From assembly GCA_965277445.1 (NCBI GenBank), contig CBDICY010000016.1, positions 441,604-505,603 of the forward strand: a DNA stretch of 64,000 nt, given 5' to 3'. Both the position numbers and the translations under genes were made by a program. Numbering within the stretch: position 1 is the first letter of the stretch; each line of letters starts with the position of its first letter. This document shows positions 5,664 through 31,405 of the stretch, in pieces. The DNA is from Saprospiraceae bacterium. GTDB taxonomy: Bacteria > Bacteroidota > Bacteroidia > Chitinophagales > Saprospiraceae. The notes beneath the pieces are model-generated. The model was not told the origin of the DNA and made no database searches. It saw only the letters and a list, made by a program, of their open reading frames with translations.

Positions 5664-5887
5664 ATGTATTACTTTTTTAACTGACACCTATAAAGTAAAA
5701 ACTATATGCACTTAAGTACCAACACACAATTATTATTAATTTTCAGCGGCTTCTTTTTCCGCTATTTTCCTCTAAAAAATCAAGCCGTAGCGGTGCTATG
5801 ACTGGATTTTTTAAAGAAAACTATCGAAAAAATAATCTCCCTGAAATTTTAAACTAATTATGAGTTGGTACTTAAATGACTAGATGG

Positions 5888-6142
5888 TTAAACAAAATTA
5901 CCTACAAATAAACCCATAAAAGTCCATGCCAATACGCCAATAATGATGAATAGAAAGGTACTAGAATAATTGATAACTTCCGTTTCTTTTTCATTGACCA
6001 ATTCTTTTGGGTTCGTTTCAGCTTCGTTAATTTCCTCCATCGTTGCATCACTTACCACTTTTAAAGCAGCACTCCAGAAATAGATAAAATAACTGACTCC
6101 TGCGGCAATAATTAGGTATAAAAGGGCTAGTAGAAAGTTCAT
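5888..6142 (-). CDS. Small membrane protein (2 TM helices), hypothetical
   Basis: Hydrophobic N- and C-terminal segments with an acidic central loop. No family recognised. Confidence 0.4.
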   Translation of the reverse strand: MNFLLALLYLIIAAGVSYFIYFWSAALKVVSDATMEEINEAETNPKELVNEKETEVINYSSTFLFIIIGVLAWTFMGLFVGNFV

Positions 6143-14880: not shown

Positions 14881-15032
14881 ATTTTGTGTTTTTATACATA
14901 GGCACATAGTAGATTCACATAGTGCATATAGTTTTAACAGAATTTGCTAACGTATATTAAGTACACCGTTCAGAAAATTTCTCGTAATTCTGACGTGTCC
15001 CCCGAGCGCAGCTATGCTGCTACTCGTAAGAT

Positions 15033-15094
15033 TTTAAAGGGAGCGATTTTTTTGATTTTTCCACGGAAAAATCAAAAAAATCGCTCCCTTTAAA
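15033..15094. repeat. Near-perfect 28-bp AT-rich inverted repeat (hairpin with loop ccacgg)
   Basis: ttttaaagggagcgatttttttgattttt ccacgg aaaaatcaaaaaaatcgctccctttaaaa. Confidence 0.8.
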
Positions 15095-15271
15095 ATCCCT
15101 TTGCGAGGCGGCATGAATGAACGATTCCGTAGGATGAAAGTCTAGTAGACTTTCAAGTGAAAGAACCGTGCAACGGGTGGGTGAGCCGCCGATCAAAACA
15201 TGAAATAACTTTTTGAACGATGTATTAAGCTATACTCGTAAAAAACTATGTGGACTTTGTGAACTATGTAT

Positions 15272-25123: not shown

Positions 25124-26128
25124 TCATTCCTCATAATGCTTATTAGCCCGCCGCAATTTATTCCAAATTCGATCCTTCAAAGCTTGTGGTTTCAAAACAA
25201 TCATCGCATCTCCAAACCCCAAAATCTCTCGTTCCAATTCATAATTAATTTGCACTGTAATGGAAATGATGATCCCTTTATCCTGCCGTTCAATCAATTC
25301 TTGACTAGGATGCAAAGGCTTGGTCAGCACATAAGGCGCATTGCTATGATAAACAAATAGGTGAATAATCTGAGGGCTTAAAGTCTCACTAACGGTTACA
25401 CCAATAACATCTTGGTAAAAATTGCTTAAATCATAATTGGTATTTTCTCGAAAAGGGATATTAGACGTTTCAATGGCTTTCATTCTATCCAATGCCAAGG
25501 TCATCATTCTTGGCGCACCTTGTTTGATGCCTAGTAAAAACCAGCGATTGCGGTATTCTTTTAATAAATAAGGAAAGAAGATAATTTCGCCAGGTTGTCG
25601 AGCCTTAAAGGATTGGTAAGTAATGGATAAAGTTTGCTTTTTCTGAACTGCTTGATAAATGGTATCTAAGTATTCCAAGCCTTGCAAACCTTCATTTTTT
25701 TCAAAATCAATAATGCGTTCTTGTTTATTTTTAGAAGTATAAACCTTGTCTTCTAATTTTTGCACCATGCCACTCAATTCCTGAAAATGCGAAAAGCCTT
25801 TGAATTGCTTTAATATTTCTACGACTTCCGTCAGCCGATTTAAATCTTGGTCGGTCAATGGAATATTAGTGATGCTATATTCAGGGTCTTCGTAAGTGTA
25901 ATATTTTTTATCCACCACAATAATCGGCGCATTATAGCCCAATTTATCCGATCGCATGAGTTGAATATCGGCTTGGACGGTTCTTTTACTCACACCTTTG
26001 TCGATGCCTTCATATTCGTAAAGGGTATCAGAACAAGCATTAATGAGGTCGTCTAAAGTCCATTTTCGGAAGCGATTGCGGAGACAATTGTCGATTGTTC
26101 GGAAGCGGATGAGTGCGTTTTTATTCAT
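25124..26128 (-). CDS. WYL-domain transcriptional regulator (wHTH + WYL + WCX)
   Basis: N-terminal HTH (LIRFRTIDNCL...) and a central WYL-type block NRWFLLGIK. Length 334 aa. Confidence 0.85.
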   Translation of the reverse strand: MNKNALIRFRTIDNCLRNRFRKWTLDDLINACSDTLYEYEGIDKGVSKRTVQADIQLMRSDKLGYNAPIIVVDKKYYTYEDPEYSITNIPLTDQDLNRLTEVVEILKQFKGFSHFQELSGMVQKLEDKVYTSKNKQERIIDFEKNEGLQGLEYLDTIYQAVQKKQTLSITYQSFKARQPGEIIFFPYLLKEYRNRWFLLGIKQGAPRMMTLALDRMKAIETSNIPFRENTNYDLSNFYQDVIGVTVSETLSPQIIHLFVYHSNAPYVLTKPLHPSQELIERQDKGIIISITVQINYELEREILGFGDAMIVLKPQALKDRIWNKLRRANKHYEE

Positions 26129-26164
26129 TGGTTGATTTATTAATTCGTAATCGCCAAATTCATG

Positions 26165-26485
26165 TCATGCGCTGTAATGTTGTAGCCAAACTAATCGACA
26201 AAAAGTTGTGGCTGTTTACTGATATTACTTAACCCCAAGGGGGTGATATATGATAACCTAGGGCGAAAAGCCCTAGGAATAAATCTAATATAATGGTCTC
26301 AAAACCCCAACGGGGTGACATAAATTCATCCTTTATGTCGCTCTTTCAGAGCTTAACCGAGCGAGCGTTATGCTCTAATCATAGGGCTGTGCCCCATGTT
26401 ATTATATTTCACTCCTTTGAAGCTAAGATTAGATAGTCACAATTCTCTGTCGGTTTAATAGTCACAACATTACGCCGCAAGACAT
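26165..26485. ncRNA. Candidate structured non-coding element (~320 nt) bracketed by a long-range inverted repeat
   Basis: tgcgctgtaatgttgta at 26168 pairs with acaacattacgccgca at 26468 (15/17). Inside are ccccaagggggtg and ccccaacggggtg hairpins, the ctagggcgaaaagccctag hairpin, and duplicated agtcacaa. No ORF is present. Confidence 0.4.
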
Positions 26486-26848
26486 TCATTTGGCGGTTAC
26501 TTATGATTTGTTATTCTTTAAAGGAAAATTGGTTTTTTGAAAATAATTACAAACTTTAATAATTTTTTATTTTGGTTTTAAGTATTTGATAGTCAGGGTT
26601 TTAGTAAAAGGATTGGCGATTTTGTAATAAATAGTTTTACGAAAAAACAAAAAAATATTTAACTACGCAAATATACTGCGCACTACCTTCCCAACTTTGT
26701 ATCATCAAACAACAAAAAAGAAATCTACTTTAATAAAAAAGATTTTTTTTTACTCGTTTGGAACTTTATTCAACAAATTAGAATTATTACTCCTCGGAAA
26801 GACCAAGCATTAAAAATCTTGCCTTTCCGAAACCAAATACCAACAATC

Positions 26849-28369
26849 ATGAAATTCAATTTATTAAAAAGAAAGACGAAGCAAATTACTAATTATCAAG
26901 GTGCAAAGGCATGGACGTTAACACCTGAATTAGCATTGTACACAGCAGTTGTGACCGCTAGTTTGACCAATAAATTTTATGAAAAAGAAGGGGAGCGATT
27001 GGCAAGAATCAAACAATTGATTGAAAAGTGTGACCCTACTTTTGTAGCCAAATTAGCCGTTTACACTAGAGAAAAAATGTATTTGCGGTCGATTCCAATT
27101 GTGTTGGTTGTAGAGTTAGCGAAGCTTCATAGCGGAGATAGTTTGGTGAGAAATACCGTGGCAAGAGTCGTCAAAAGAGCCGACGAAATCATGGAATTAT
27201 TGGCTTACTACCAATTTGCGAATGATAGAAAAGACACCAAAAAATTGAACAAATTGTCGAAGCAAATCCAAAAAGGATTAGGTGTCGCTTTCAATAATTT
27301 TGATGAATATCAGTTTGCTAAATATAACCGAGCAGGAACCGTGACCTTAAAAGATGCTTTGTTTTTAGTTCACCCAAAAGCAAAGGATGAAGTGCAACAA
27401 GCGATTTTTAATAAGATAGTGAAAGATACCTTGACCACACCTTATACTTGGGAAGTGGAGTTGTCCAAATTAGGGCAAGAAAAATATCCTTCTGCTACTG
27501 CTAAAGCAAAAGCAGTAACTGCCAAATGGGAAGAATTGATTGATAGCGGAAGATTGGGGTATATGGCATTGATGAGAAATTTGCGAAATATTTTGCAAGC
27601 AGATGTGAGTGCTGACCATATCAAAAAAGTAGCGCGTTTTTTAGGCGATGCAGAAAAAGTGAGCCGTGCGAAACAATTGCCTTTCAGATTCTTATCAGCA
27701 TATAGAGAATTAGAGCAATTGAAATTGCCTTATGTGAATTACTTATTAACAGCATTGGAAAAAGCGGTGAAGGCAAGTGCTAAAAATATTAAAGGATTTG
27801 GTTTGAAAACCAAGGTAGTTTTAGCCTCGGACGTATCAGGTTCTATGTATTCCCAAATTTCTCCAAAAAGCAAAATTCAATGCTATGACATCGGATTAAT
27901 GTTGAGTATGTTGATGAGAAATCGTTCTAAAAATGTCTTCACAGGAATTTTTGGCAATACTTGGGAAATGATGAATTTACCAGCGGATAACATTTTAGCC
28001 AACACGATGAAATTGCGAAAAATGGAAGGTAGAGTTGGTTATTCAACGAACGGCTATAAAGTGATTAACGACTTAATTAAGCGAAAATTGAAAGTTGATA
28101 AAGTCTTAATCTTTACCGATTTGCAATTATGGGATAGTCGAAATGACGGAAATAGTTTGCAAAGTTCGTGGGCAGAGTATACCCAAAAGTATGCGCCAAA
28201 TGCCAAAATTTATTTATTCGACTTACAAGGCTATGGACAATCGCCTTTGCGAATTCCATCCAGAAATGTCCACTTAATTGCTGGCTGGTCGGATAAAGTG
28301 TTTGAGGTATTGGAGGCTATTGAGAATGGGGGAGATGCTATTACTGAAATCAACAATATTACTTTGTAA
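26849..28369 (+). CDS. rsr: Ro60-like ribonucleoprotein (TROVE domain + C-terminal vWA)
   Basis: TROVE-like helical repeat N-terminal region and a C-terminal vWA with the MIDAS motif DVSGSM. Size (~506 aa from MKFNLL) matches bacterial Rsr. Confidence 0.85.
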   Translation: MKFNLLKRKTKQITNYQGAKAWTLTPELALYTAVVTASLTNKFYEKEGERLARIKQLIEKCDPTFVAKLAVYTREKMYLRSIPIVLVVELAKLHSGDSLVRNTVARVVKRADEIMELLAYYQFANDRKDTKKLNKLSKQIQKGLGVAFNNFDEYQFAKYNRAGTVTLKDALFLVHPKAKDEVQQAIFNKIVKDTLTTPYTWEVELSKLGQEKYPSATAKAKAVTAKWEELIDSGRLGYMALMRNLRNILQADVSADHIKKVARFLGDAEKVSRAKQLPFRFLSAYRELEQLKLPYVNYLLTALEKAVKASAKNIKGFGLKTKVVLASDVSGSMYSQISPKSKIQCYDIGLMLSMLMRNRSKNVFTGIFGNTWEMMNLPADNILANTMKLRKMEGRVGYSTNGYKVINDLIKRKLKVDKVLIFTDLQLWDSRNDGNSLQSSWAEYTQKYAPNAKIYLFDLQGYGQSPLRIPSRNVHLIAGWSDKVFEVLEAIENGGDAITEINNITL

Positions 28370-28445: not shown

Positions 28446-28468
28446 AATGAAACAAAAGACATAAGAAA

Positions 28469-28592
28469 AGTGCCGTAGAACAACGTTACTTCGACTCTTA
28501 ATCGGGAGGTTGTAGGTTCGAGTCCTACTATTGCTGGCAACAGCGATATAGCTCAATTGGATAGAGCGCCATGAACGTTATTCGATTTTTGC
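28469..28592 (+). ncRNA. Permuted tRNA-like unit U1 (candidate YrlA-type Y RNA)
   Basis: T-arm gtagg-ttcgagt-cctac, closed acceptor hairpin tattgct-ggcaac-agcgata, ta, D-arm gctc-aattggata-gagc, then a tail. Confidence 0.55.
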
Positions 28593-28679
28593 CTTCTCTT
28601 TTTACAGGATAACAGGATTATGGAGGATTCACAAGATTTAGTAGGACGTAATTTCTATCCTGTAAATCTTGTAATCAAT

Positions 28680-28757
28680 AGTGCCGTAAAGCAATGTTAC
28701 TTCGCTTTGATTGGATCTGTGGGTTCGAATCCCACCATGTCATTGCTTGCTTTTGCC
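28680..28757 (+). ncRNA. tRNA-like unit U2 (head + T-arm gtggg-ttcgaat-cccac + cattgct; no D-arm)
   Basis: Same head motif. It looks like a tRNA 3'-portion. Confidence 0.4.
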
Positions 28758-29040
28758 TATTGGCTTTTGAAAATAAAAAAATGATAATAAAAAGGGTGTC
28801 GTAAAATAGGCTTACTTCGATTTACTTGCGATCACTTGATTGTGGCTTTTATGGAGTTTTGTTTTCCACATCAAAAAGATAGACAAAAAGAAACAGAAAA
28901 TGCTCACTTGTTGGGTAATCCAAAATTGACTATTTGAATTTAACCCCTTTTTAAGAAAAAGAGGTGTCGTCTAAAAGTCTTACTTCGCTAGAAAATCGGA
29001 ACAAACTAGACTTTTAAAATGGTTACCCTCTTTCTAAAAT

Positions 29041-29114
29041 GCTTCCGTGGACAAACTGGTTAAGTCGCTGCTCTTTCACAGCAGAGATTGCGGGTTCGAG
29101 CCCCGTCGGGAGTA
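29041..29114 (+). tRNA. tRNA-Glu(TTC), no encoded CCA
   Basis: Acceptor gcttccg/cgggagt (two G-U pairs), 3-bp D-stem gac/gtc, anticodon arm ctgct-cTTTCac-agcag, T-arm gcggg-ttcgagc-cccgt, discriminator A. Confidence 0.8.
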
Positions 29115-29287
29115 CATCTACAGGATGACAGGATTATGCAAGATTTACAGGATGAAAGTAGGACGTAAATGGAATTAGCAGAATTCTGTTAACTTAGAGA
29201 AATCATACTATATTTTTGAAGTATAGTTGGAAAAAGATGTGTTGTATTTTGTTAAGTTAGTAGAGTTTACTATGTTAGTAGCTTTTA

Positions 29288-29677
29288 ATGAGAAAACTAA
29301 CAAAAATGAAATACGAAAAAATGACGGGAGATATTATTGGTGCAGCCTTTAAAGTACACAATAAACTAGGGTATGGTTTTAAAGAAAAACACTACCAAAG
29401 AGCGATGATTATAGAATTAGAGAAATTGGGATACCATGTAGAAGAAGAGCTGTATTTGAATATTTACTATGACGATAAAGTAATAGGAAAAGATAGAGCC
29501 GATTTATTTGTAAATAAAACCATTTTAGTAGAATTGAAAACACTAAAAGAGTTAGCTAAAAATGATGAAATTCAATTGGTTAATTATTTAAATGCTACAA
29601 GAGTAGAAATAGGGTTATTAATCAATTTTGGGCAGAGTGTAACCGTTAAAAGAAAATTTAGAGATTACAAAAAATGA
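29288..29677 (+). CDS. GxxExxY family protein
   Basis: TGDIIGAAFKVHNKLGYGFKEKHYQRAMIIELEKLGY...VNYLNAT. This family typically sits inside tRNA/rRNA clusters in Bacteroidota. Confidence 0.8.
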   Translation: MRKLTKMKYEKMTGDIIGAAFKVHNKLGYGFKEKHYQRAMIIELEKLGYHVEEELYLNIYYDDKVIGKDRADLFVNKTILVELKTLKELAKNDEIQLVNYLNATRVEIGLLINFGQSVTVKRKFRDYKK

Positions 29678-29746
29678 TGACTTGATTTTATAAATAGGAA
29701 ACCTATCCTGTAAATCTTGAAAAATCTTGTCATCCTGTAAGAGAAG

Positions 29747-29871
29747 AGTGTCGTAGAGCAACGTTACTTCGATTGTCACTCGGGAAGTTGCAGGTTCGAA
29801 CCCTGCCATTGCTAAATATAGTAATGTAGTTCAATTGGATAGAACACCTTGTACGTTATTCGGTTTTTACC
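29747..29871 (+). ncRNA. Permuted tRNA-like unit U5
   Basis: T-arm gcagg-ttcgaac-cctgc, acceptor hairpin cattgct-aaatat-agtaatg (one G-U), ta, D-arm gttc-aattggata-gaac, tail ccttgtacgttattcggtttttacc. Confidence 0.55.
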
Positions 29872-29903
29872 TTTTCTTTTTTGAGCATATAAAAAAAGTC
29901 AAT

Positions 29904-29988
29904 AGTGCCGTAGAGCGATGTTACTTCGATTCAATTGGTTATTATAGGTTCGAATCCTATTCGTTTATAGCACATTGTTCGTTTTTGC
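29904..29988 (+). ncRNA. tRNA-like unit U6 (head + T-arm atagg-ttcgaat-cctat + tail; no D-arm)
   Basis: Head agtgccgtagagcgatgttacttcga, tail ttgttcgtttttgcc. Confidence 0.4.
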
Positions 29989-30013
29989 CTATTGAGTTTT
30001 AAAGACATTAGAA

Positions 30014-30145
30014 AAGTGCCGTAGTAGCATCCTACTTCGATAGGAATTTGGAGGTTACAGGTTCGAGCCCTGTCATTGCTGAGGAATTGGCAATGTAGTG
30101 CAAATGGATAGCACACCAAACAAAGAAGATACTGCGACTTTTGCC
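30014..30145 (+). ncRNA. Permuted tRNA-like unit U7
   Basis: T-arm acagg-ttcgagc-cctgt, acceptor hairpin cattgc-tgaggaattg-gcaatg, ta, D-arm gtgc-aaatggata-gcac, tail ...cttttgcc. Confidence 0.55.
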
Positions 30146-30184
30146 TTTTCTTTTTTGAAAATTTTAAATTGAAAAATTATTAAC

Positions 30185-30259
30185 GGTCTATTGGGGTAAT
30201 GGTTATCCTCCTCGGTTGTCTCCCGAGTGATATGAGTTCGATTCTCATATAGACCGCCA
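30185..30259 (+). tRNA. tRNA-Asp(GTC) with encoded CCA
   Basis: Acceptor ggtctat/atagacc, D-loop aatggtt, anticodon arm ctcgg-ttGTCtc-ccgag, T-arm atgag-ttcgatt-ctcat, then G-CCA. A T at position 37 is unusual. Confidence 0.75.
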
Positions 30260-30338
30260 AACAATTTACAAGATAACAGGATTAATTAGATTAACAGGAT
30301 ATAAGAATCTTGTAAATCTTGTCATCCTGTAAAACAAG

Positions 30339-30506
30339 AGTGCCGTAGAATATAGCGTTACTTCGATTCCAGATCCGTAGGTCGTGGGTTCAAATCCCTC
30401 CATCGCTGCTGTAACACAACTCTCCGAGTTGTGAAATTTTATAAAAAACAGCGATGTAGCTCAGCGGTTAGAGCAACGTAACAGTCGCTTTTCGAATGTT
30501 GCCTCC
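30339..30506 (+). ncRNA. Permuted tRNA-like unit U8 (acceptor hairpin has a long loop containing an 8-bp sub-hairpin)
   Basis: T-arm gtggg-ttcaaat-ccctc (one mismatch), acceptor catcgct...(cacaactc tcc gagttgtg)...agcgatg, ta, D-arm gctc-agcggtta-gagc. Confidence 0.5.
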
Positions 30507-30712
30507 TGTTTTTCTCTTTTAACTTCAACGGGAAGTGCCTTGCAAAGAGGTTCGGTTCGATTCCGAGAAAGAGAACAAGTGCTTTGCACAAAAATGACAA
30601 TCACTTGGTAATGATAGACCAGATGAGGGTTTCTGTATAGCCTCGTAGTGTTCGCCCAGTTGGGTGGAATATGCTGCTACTTTATTGAGTATTGTAACCA
30701 AAATTTGTGTGT

Positions 30713-30955
30713 CGGAGGTTCGATTCCTCCTTCTGGTAATTTACCAGAATAGCTCAGTTGGAAGAGCAACAAATTTCACCCTGTAGGTCGAGGGTTCGAC
30801 TCCCTCCTTAATCTTTGGGATTAAGTAGTTCAGTTGGTTAGAACGACAGATTCTGAATTTCCAGGTTCGAGTCCTGGTTCCGATACGTCGGAATGGCGGA
30901 ATTGGTAAACGCAATGGACATTAAATCCATCATTCTTTGAAGGAGAAAGCCACTT
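30713..30955 (+). ncRNA. Three contiguous permuted tRNA-like modules U9-U11; U11 ends in a tRNA-Leu-like D-arm, anticodon-like hairpin and variable-arm-like hairpin
   Basis: U9: ggagg-ttcgatt-cctcc, ttctggt-aattt-accagaa, ta, gctc-agttggaa-gagc. U10: gaggg-ttcgact-ccctc, cttaatc-tttgg-gattaag, ta, gttc-agttggtta-gaac. U11: ccagg-ttcgagt-cctgg, ttccgat-ac-gtcggaa, tg, gcg-gaattggtaaa-cgc, atgga-cattaaa-tccat, cttt-gaaggag-aaag. Confidence 0.55.
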
Positions 30956-31288: not shown

Positions 31289-31405
31289 AACTGGTAGAAA
31301 AGCCTTCAGGCTTTCCTGTTCAAGACCTTTAGGTCTGTCATTTCATAAGTAGATTCTTTCTAGCCTAAAGGCTAGTGACGGGAAAGCCTGAAGGCTTTTC
31401 TACCG
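31289..31405. repeat. Multi-hairpin repeat element, copy B (inverted relative to copy A at 18988-19134)
   Basis: 24-bp outer stem ggtagaaaagccttcaggctttcc/ggaaagcctgaaggcttttctacc, with inner hairpins gacctttaggtc and tagcctaaaggcta. Confidence 0.7.

Follow-up and report, generated by a model that had tools for sequence, protein, structure and literature searches.

The intergenic region between a WYL-domain regulator gene and rsr in Saprospiraceae bacterium (assembly GCA_965277445.1, contig CBDICY010000016.1), analysed within a window of 64,000 nucleotides, contains a 354-nt imperfect palindrome (26147-26500) that, to judge from sequence comparison, is very probably a piece of degenerate, non-autonomous mobile DNA: a palindromic miniature inverted-repeat transposable element (MITE) similar to REPINs (doublets of repetitive extragenic palindromic, REP, sequences that form hairpins) and to PATEs (palindrome-associated transposable elements). 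Plain coordinates below are those of the 64-kb window, and labels of the form L001 denote fetched metagenome contigs or loci. The case for a mobile element is built on an insertion polymorphism that includes an empty site, a second copy at an unrelated locus, the structure of the ends (terminal inverted repeats, TIRs, and a flanking 4-nt direct repeat around a small, non-coding body) and a dispersed, multicopy family of hairpin modules linked to a Y1 transposase. An earlier note on this DNA had likened the structure to a Y RNA and allowed for a MITE or a regulatory leader, and it is the MITE that this evidence bears out. The flanking genes are those that the note had named, with Pfam matches to WYL+WCX in the regulator (25124-26128, minus strand) and to TROVE/vWA in the Rsr gene (plus strand) across the gap. 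The interval between them is non-coding as described, although its extent changes from 26130-26818 (690 bp) to 26129-26848 because the conserved start of rsr is the ATG at 26849, which gives a 506-aa protein as in the relatives.

The structured element noted earlier is present, at 354 nt instead of about 320. The long-range inverted repeat GCGCTGTAATGTTGT (26169-26183) / ACAACATTACGCCGC (26465-26479) by which it had been recognised is complementary at 13 of 15 positions, where 15 of 17 had been given, and is the core of a longer repeat with 37-nt arms (26147-26183 and 26464-26500, 84% complementary). Complementarity of about 70% continues over approximately 135 nt on each side (26147-26281 versus 26376-26500), with 124 identities in 199 columns of the arm-to-arm alignment, and the centre is non-palindromic and composed of local hairpins. 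The smaller features of the earlier description were all located: two AACCCCAA[G/C]GGGGTGA hairpins at 26231-26246 and 26303-26318 (2 observed versus 0.02 expected), the CCTAGGGCGAAAAGCCCTAGG hairpin at 26257-26277 and the duplicated ATAGTCACAA at 26433-26442 and 26458-26467. Folded as RNA, the plus strand reaches -121.8 kcal/mol (z = -11.1) and the minus strand -115.0 kcal/mol (z = -8.1), energies equalled by 0 of 100 shuffles in either case. The longest open reading frame (ORF) within the element is 47 aa, and its stop-free frames of 35-59 aa are disrupted by indels between copies.

Read from the outside inwards, the palindrome begins with a 12-nt outer arm, GTAATCGCCAAA (26147-26158), and ends with its partner TTTGGCGGTTAC (26489-26500), the two arms corresponding to the terminal palindrome of an older MITE-like element of a second kind, here termed X-type. 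Within these arms lie 4-nt direct repeats, TTCA (TGAA on the minus strand), at 26159-26162 and 26485-26488, which could be either a target-site duplication or a target/cleavage tetranucleotide. They flank the inner palindromic, non-coding, MITE/REPIN-like element of 322 nt (26163-26484), so that on the minus strand the layout is GTAACCGCCAAA-TGAA-inner element-TGAA-TTTGGCGATTAC. The TIRs of the inner element (26163-26183, TGTCATGCGCTGTAATGTTGT, and 26464-26484) match at 18 of 21 positions and take the degenerate form TGKYWTGCG...TAATGTTGT. Each inverted arm carries an outward-facing two-hairpin module of the type of the Rfam family RF01687 (Acido-Lenti-1). The left module (26231-26277, minus strand) consists of a CCTAGGGC..GCCCTAGG hairpin, an TTATCATATAT linker and a CACCCC..GGGGTT hairpin, and points towards the left end. 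The right module (26380-26424, plus strand) is degenerate, aligns with the left one in the arm-to-arm alignment and points towards the right end. Between the two stands a central hairpin (26303-26352) formed by CCCCAACGGGG + GACATAAA, a loop and TTTATGTC + GCTCTTTCAGAGC, which appears in both the RNA and the single-stranded DNA (ssDNA) folds, is kept in the homologue at L142 and has as its equivalent in L157 a perfect hairpin with 21-nt arms.

Comparison with related lineages identifies the element as an insertion polymorphism. Close homologues of the WYL regulator occur in metagenomes of Bacteroidota/Cytophagia, and seven related lineages with 86-97% identical WYL proteins were fetched; in none of L001-L009, L130 and L131 does the orthologous WYL-rsr gap contain the element. 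In L001-L004 (WYL protein 97% identical) the flanks align at 84% and 92% nucleotide identity, and 76 nt stand in place of window positions 26160-26488. In L005-L007 (95%) the site is occupied by another palindrome with multiple hairpins, the X insert of about 300 nt (fold z about -9); all three of these contigs end at the X-type element upstream of WYL. The outer X-type arms flank both this insert and the 76-nt remnant in L001-L004. L006 provides an unoccupied site with a single TGAA, GCCAAA-TGAA-TTTGGCGGTTAC (that is, GCCAAA-TGAA-TTTGGC), and the clean site GCCAAATGAATTTGGCGGTTAC is found in L005-L007. No similarity to the element was detected in L130, L131, L008 or L009, and at the site L008, L009 and L130 carry a 198-aa gene instead (L008 2578-3174, L009 2005-2601, L130 323-919). 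This gene, for which Pfam gives no match, precedes WYL at a distance of 8 nt in an operon-like arrangement, and the window, L001, L006 and L131 do not have it. As for the WYL regulator itself, a PhyH dioxygenase domain is fused to many of its homologues in Cytophagales.

A full-length homologue of the element was retrieved from two further contigs, L142 (5514-5719) and L163 (2957-3162), in a scan of JGI metagenomes with the module pattern given below. It is 77-78% identical to the window element over 189-228 nt depending on the query, and its palindromic counterpart matches as well. In L142 the TIR is perfect over 24/24 bp (TGGTATGCGACATAATGTTGTAGC), TGAA stands on both sides and the whole lies inside the palindrome GCCAAA...TTTGGCGATTACG. 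The surroundings are unrelated to those in the window: a search of the L142 contig, 9.3 kb long, revealed no WYL, rsr or YrlA-like sequence, and the element is accompanied there by a 478-aa ORF without a Pfam match and, 4.5 kb away, by a reverse-transcriptase ORF. Apart from the element, L142 resembles the window only in a protein segment of 40% identity, which in the window maps 28 kb from the element. X-type arms in L142 (5364-5381 and 6031-6048) enclose an X-like body with the window-type element nested near one end. The X-like body (5720-6048, with the X-type ends GTAATCGCCAAA...TTTGGCGGTTAC) is 68% identical to the L006 insert and unrelated to the window element. In the window, accordingly, the inner MITE-like element (26163-26484) sits within the end hairpin of an older X-type element of which only the arms remain, a natural example of hairpin-loop targeting in which one hairpin element sits in the loop of another's terminal hairpin.

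Decay has gone further in the window copy than in that of L142. Its TIRs match at 18/21 positions versus 24/24, one of its modules is badly eroded, and its ssDNA fold is -65.7 kcal/mol (z = -8.6) versus -94.7 kcal/mol (z = -16.1). It has probably decayed since its insertion and become immobile.

The modules in the arms belong to a large dispersed family. The left arm (26231-26277, minus strand) aligns over the whole 46-nt RF01687 model, with both hairpins (the first being CCUAG...CUAGG) and the UA..UAU linker covered, at 36.0 bits (local E = 1.2e-6), 1 bit under the gathering score of 37; the right module scores 17.5 bits (local E = 0.13), so that neither reaches the gathering score and no Rfam family does so within the element. 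The homologous copies do exceed it, with both modules at 48.5-51.1 bits in L142/L163 and 45-56.8 bits in L149/L157. Other weak Rfam matches (AaHKsRNA22, lysM-Prevotella and others) had local E values of 0.05 or worse and were treated as chance. The pattern CCTAGGGC-N4-7-GCCCTAGG-N-TA-NNN-TAT was found in 72 JGI metagenome contigs versus about 2 expected by chance, the expectation being our own estimate, and single metagenomes contributed dozens of almost identical instances. Inverted module pairs 50-130 nt apart are frequent (L142, L149, L157, L144, L147, L148, L185), and the end of the locus is no farther than about 200 nt away for 20 of 88 instances. Tandem arrays also occur, with three copies at a 72-nt period in L136 (2020-2192) and three at a 153-nt period in L177 (133-470). 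Across instances the second hairpin shows compensatory changes, double in 6 of 13 pairs, which fits an RNA hairpin and an ssDNA hairpin alike.

The module family is linked to transposases of the Y1 type. Clustering of module-adjacent ORFs yielded one recurrent small protein (126-151 aa), present in L166, L193, L177 and L141, whose four members match Pfam Y1_Tnp (E 1e-24 to 1e-25) and the NCBIfam IS200/IS605 transposase model (63-72 bits, cutoff 55). The model for the REP-associated tyrosine transposase (RAYT), REP_Tyr_transpos, was not reached (23-29 bits, cutoff 80). The genes with their flanking modules lie at L166 6260-7040, L193 360-1150, L141 7380-8010 and L177 133-1123. In L166 the Y1 gene stands between inverted flanks of about 110 bp, each with three hairpins and with the modules facing outwards, an arrangement that is that of the window element plus a gene in the middle.

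These observations can be combined into a mechanism. The element consists of two inverted arms, each with an outward two-hairpin Acido-Lenti-1-type module, and of the central hairpin between them, and it would have moved as a folded single strand through an IS200-like Y1 (HUH) transposase supplied in trans. Its place is 3' of TGAA in the loop of the small GCCAAA-TGAA-TTTGGC palindrome, which is itself the end of an older, unrelated MITE-like element resident between WYL and rsr. We infer mobilisation by Y1 because intact relatives of the module flank Y1 genes; handling of ssDNA hairpins by such an enzyme would place both copies 3' of TGAA in a hairpin loop, where they are found. At the locus the insertion sets the WYL gene about 330 nt farther from the conserved control block of the gap, and a transcript running through it would contain a very stable hairpin.

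Elements of this general kind, among them MITEs, REPINs and palindromic derivatives of IS200, are well known (PMC3116915, PMC5581495, PMC3733652), and the closest known systems share some features with the window element and differ from it in others. As in the REPIN/RAYT system (PMC3116915, PMC5581495), two inverted hairpin modules combine into one long non-coding hairpin, and the modules form a dispersed family that is also found inverted around a Y1 (HUH) transposase gene, as in L166. However, REPs measure 20-40 bp (PMC3733652) and a REPIN comprises two of them with a short spacer, whereas the window element spans 322-354 nt and each of its arms contains two hairpins and an outer arm of about 70 nt with its own TIR. 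The GTAG/CGTC tag of REPs (PMC3733652) was not seen in the module instances inspected, in which CCTAGGGC is preceded by variable bases (ATAG, TTAG, GAGC), and the module-flanked Y1 proteins score as IS200/IS605 and not as members of the RAYT clade. With IS200 and the MITE-like derivatives of IS200/IS605 (PATEs) the element shares subterminal hairpins, association with a Y1 TnpA of about 150 aa, insertion beside a specific tetranucleotide (TGAA) and the existence of a non-autonomous copy without the gene. It differs in its long inverted-repeat ends, since IS200/IS605 ends do not normally form inverted repeats and carry hairpins in direct orientation, and in that no autonomous partner carrying the window element's own TIR was found.

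Several observations weigh against a Y1-mobilised MITE. No Y1 transposase gene was found in the window by tblastn, and the Y1 genes detected elsewhere come from sub-families with modules unlike those in the window, so that the mobilising enzyme is something we infer only. The empty-site loop of L006 reads TGAA where the window, in the same orientation, reads TTCA; with the loop orientation differing in this way, the insertion history was not a simple one-step event. The full-length family is represented at one other independent locus only, as L142 and L163 seem to be one locus sampled twice, and L149/L157 carry only a shorter relative. A second copy was not found in the 64-kb window, nor was the 24-nt degenerate TIR pattern matched in JGI metagenomes. 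A perfect TIR with a 4-nt flanking repeat would, moreover, fit a MITE of the DDE type equally well. A 16-nt TIR pattern, too short to be selective, gave at least 120 single chance matches in reference genome contigs, none of which holds the element by BLAST. Five scans of viral contigs gave no match, two of them with TIR/linker patterns, two with blocks that the window and L142 have in common, and one, in IMG/VR, with the module pattern, and neither did blastn against plasmids and phages.

TIRs with flanking target duplications are the classic signature of DDE transposases, and IS200/IS605 elements normally have neither TIRs nor target duplications. The element could on this ground be a MITE that depended on a DDE transposase (for example one derived from an IS3- or IS5-type element) and carried the Acido-Lenti-1 modules as passengers, a reading that the TG...CA termini, the perfect 24-bp TIR in L142 and the 4-nt direct repeats in both independent copies favour and that, though a fair rival as regards mechanism, we regard as rather unlikely. 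Both copies occupy the same palindrome loop at the same tetranucleotide, which fits ssDNA insertion 3' of a specific tetranucleotide; the transposase genes found adjoining the module family are all of the Y1 type; and apparent TIRs are expected in any case where two modules stand inverted as a palindromic doublet, as in REPINs (PMC3116915). The curation of RF01687 as a small RNA (sRNA) candidate in Acidobacteria and Lentisphaerae (Weinberg et al. 2010, PMC2864571) raises the further reading that the modules are genuine sRNA genes, as their Rfam label has it, and the element a locus that expresses them. Compensatory change in the second hairpin is what such a gene would show, yet ssDNA hairpins recognised by a transposase predict the same covariation. 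The modules are dispersed, often inverted or in tandem, frequently at contig ends and flank Y1 transposase genes, and those in the window fall under the gathering score with one badly degenerate; expression as an sRNA locus is accordingly given little credence. The function of RF01687 was still described as unknown in a preprint of 2026 (10.64898/2026.02.09.704811). The left window module spans the full model and its homologous copies exceed the gathering score, but the family is listed for Acidobacteria and Lentisphaerae and the window comes from Bacteroidota, and the context favours a repeat at the DNA level over an sRNA gene. It suggests that RF01687 represents a subterminal hairpin module of widespread IS200-like Y1 transposons and of their palindromic MITEs, and argues for reclassifying the family as a transposon-end/REP-like DNA motif with a range extended to Bacteroidota. 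We found no literature linking RF01687 to transposon ends or REP-like DNA in an incomplete literature search.

The Y RNA put forward in the earlier note is hardly credible. Such an RNA, bound by Rsr, would use the terminal stem as its Ro-binding helix and the internal hairpins as an effector module. The element does adjoin rsr, a long closing stem does enclose internal hairpins as in bacterial Y RNAs and YrlA, and the plus strand, that of rsr, folds 6.8 kcal/mol better than the minus strand. However, the Infernal search against Rfam that the note had proposed returned no match to Y_RNA (RF00019) or YrlA (RF02553) in 26100-26560 even at E <= 10, and no tRNA-like domain is present. Characterised Y RNAs measure 80-130 nt (PMC4201824), compared with 322 nt for the inner element and 354 nt with the outer arms, about three times that size. 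The YrlA genes described by Chen et al. (2014, PMC4201824) share the strand of rsr and lie no more than 4 kb away from it; the element lies within this distance, but its own strand is undefined and it is not conserved with rsr, as none of the related WYL-rsr loci fetched has it. Its position is upstream of the control region conserved at rsr, and its homologue occurs on a contig where rsr was not found. The place expected for a Y RNA, downstream of rsr, is moreover taken by six YrlA-like modules. A retron, a riboswitch and an rsr leader were also considered and rejected, the element lying upstream of the conserved rsr control region with no adjoining reverse transcriptase gene in the window. 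More probable than a Y RNA, and still improbable, is a MITE since exapted as a cis-regulator, either as a long structured 5' untranslated region (UTR) of the WYL mRNA (minus strand) or as an insulator/terminator between the divergent units. The element begins 19 nt upstream of the WYL start codon, its hairpin is very stable on both strands, and the gap has a single perfect Bacteroidetes -7 box, TAnnTTTG (minus strand, 26675-26668), from which a WYL transcript would run through the element. Against this, close relatives lack the element or carry a different insert, the copy is decaying and not conserved, no terminator-like site was detected, and a relaxed -7-like box, TGAATTTG (26162-26155), at the junction of element and flank may provide WYL with a proximal promoter. 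WYL domains in relatives such as PafBC and DriD bind ssDNA, and the element might have been co-opted by the WYL/Rsr stress module as a structured 5' UTR, as an insulator or as a source of nucleic-acid ligand for the WYL domain, which we consider very improbable and less well supported than the transposon-end reading of RF01687. With the palindromic MITE preferred, the element likely has no dedicated role in the Rsr system and its effects on the locus would be incidental. The structure beside rsr would then be selfish DNA, not to be annotated as a Y RNA or counted in the Rsr system.

The better Y RNA candidates at this locus are the YrlA-like modules downstream of rsr. Six sub-threshold matches to YrlA (RF02553), all on the plus strand with starts at 28505, 29766, 30049, 30360, 30706 and 30782 and together spanning 28505-30851, score 32-38 bits (gathering score 69; local E 4e-6 to 2e-4) and cover the T-arm/D-arm tRNA-like core. 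Matches are also present downstream of rsr in the relatives L001, L131 and L008, and the modules are the real candidates for partners of Rsr. The array region (28464-30879, plus strand) is unusually large for a Y-RNA-like cluster, and interspersed among the modules are tRNA-Glu(UUC) (29041-29115), tRNA-Asp(GUC) (30185-30259) and a PDDEXK_3 (PD-(D/E)XK_3) ORF (29288-29677).

Within the gap itself, the palindrome TACGCAAATATACTGCG (26664-26680) and the surrounding block are conserved in all related WYL-rsr loci fetched. This block (about 26655-26710), which contains the perfect -7 box inside the palindrome, probably serves the divergent WYL and rsr units as a common operator/promoter, and the palindrome is possibly the binding site of the WYL regulator. 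A sigma-70 promoter and terminator scan of the gap, whose consensus is wrong for Bacteroidota, returned 2 sites versus 3.8 expected and no terminators. The rsr leader is conserved in the relatives whose contigs reach rsr. It includes a 5' hairpin, CTCGGAAAG..CTTTCCGAA (26793-26831), shared with the leaders of L001, L131 and L009 and variable in loop length, and in relatives the loop contains CCAAATGAAAA, resembling the MITE target GCCAAATGAA. Elsewhere in the window, long near-perfect hairpins at 31293-31405 and 15030-15100 give spurious miRNA-model matches on both strands and could represent either terminators or additional palindromic repeats. One is placed shortly upstream of an SPFH/Band-7 gene (31452), and the other has 35-bp arms and an ACGG loop.

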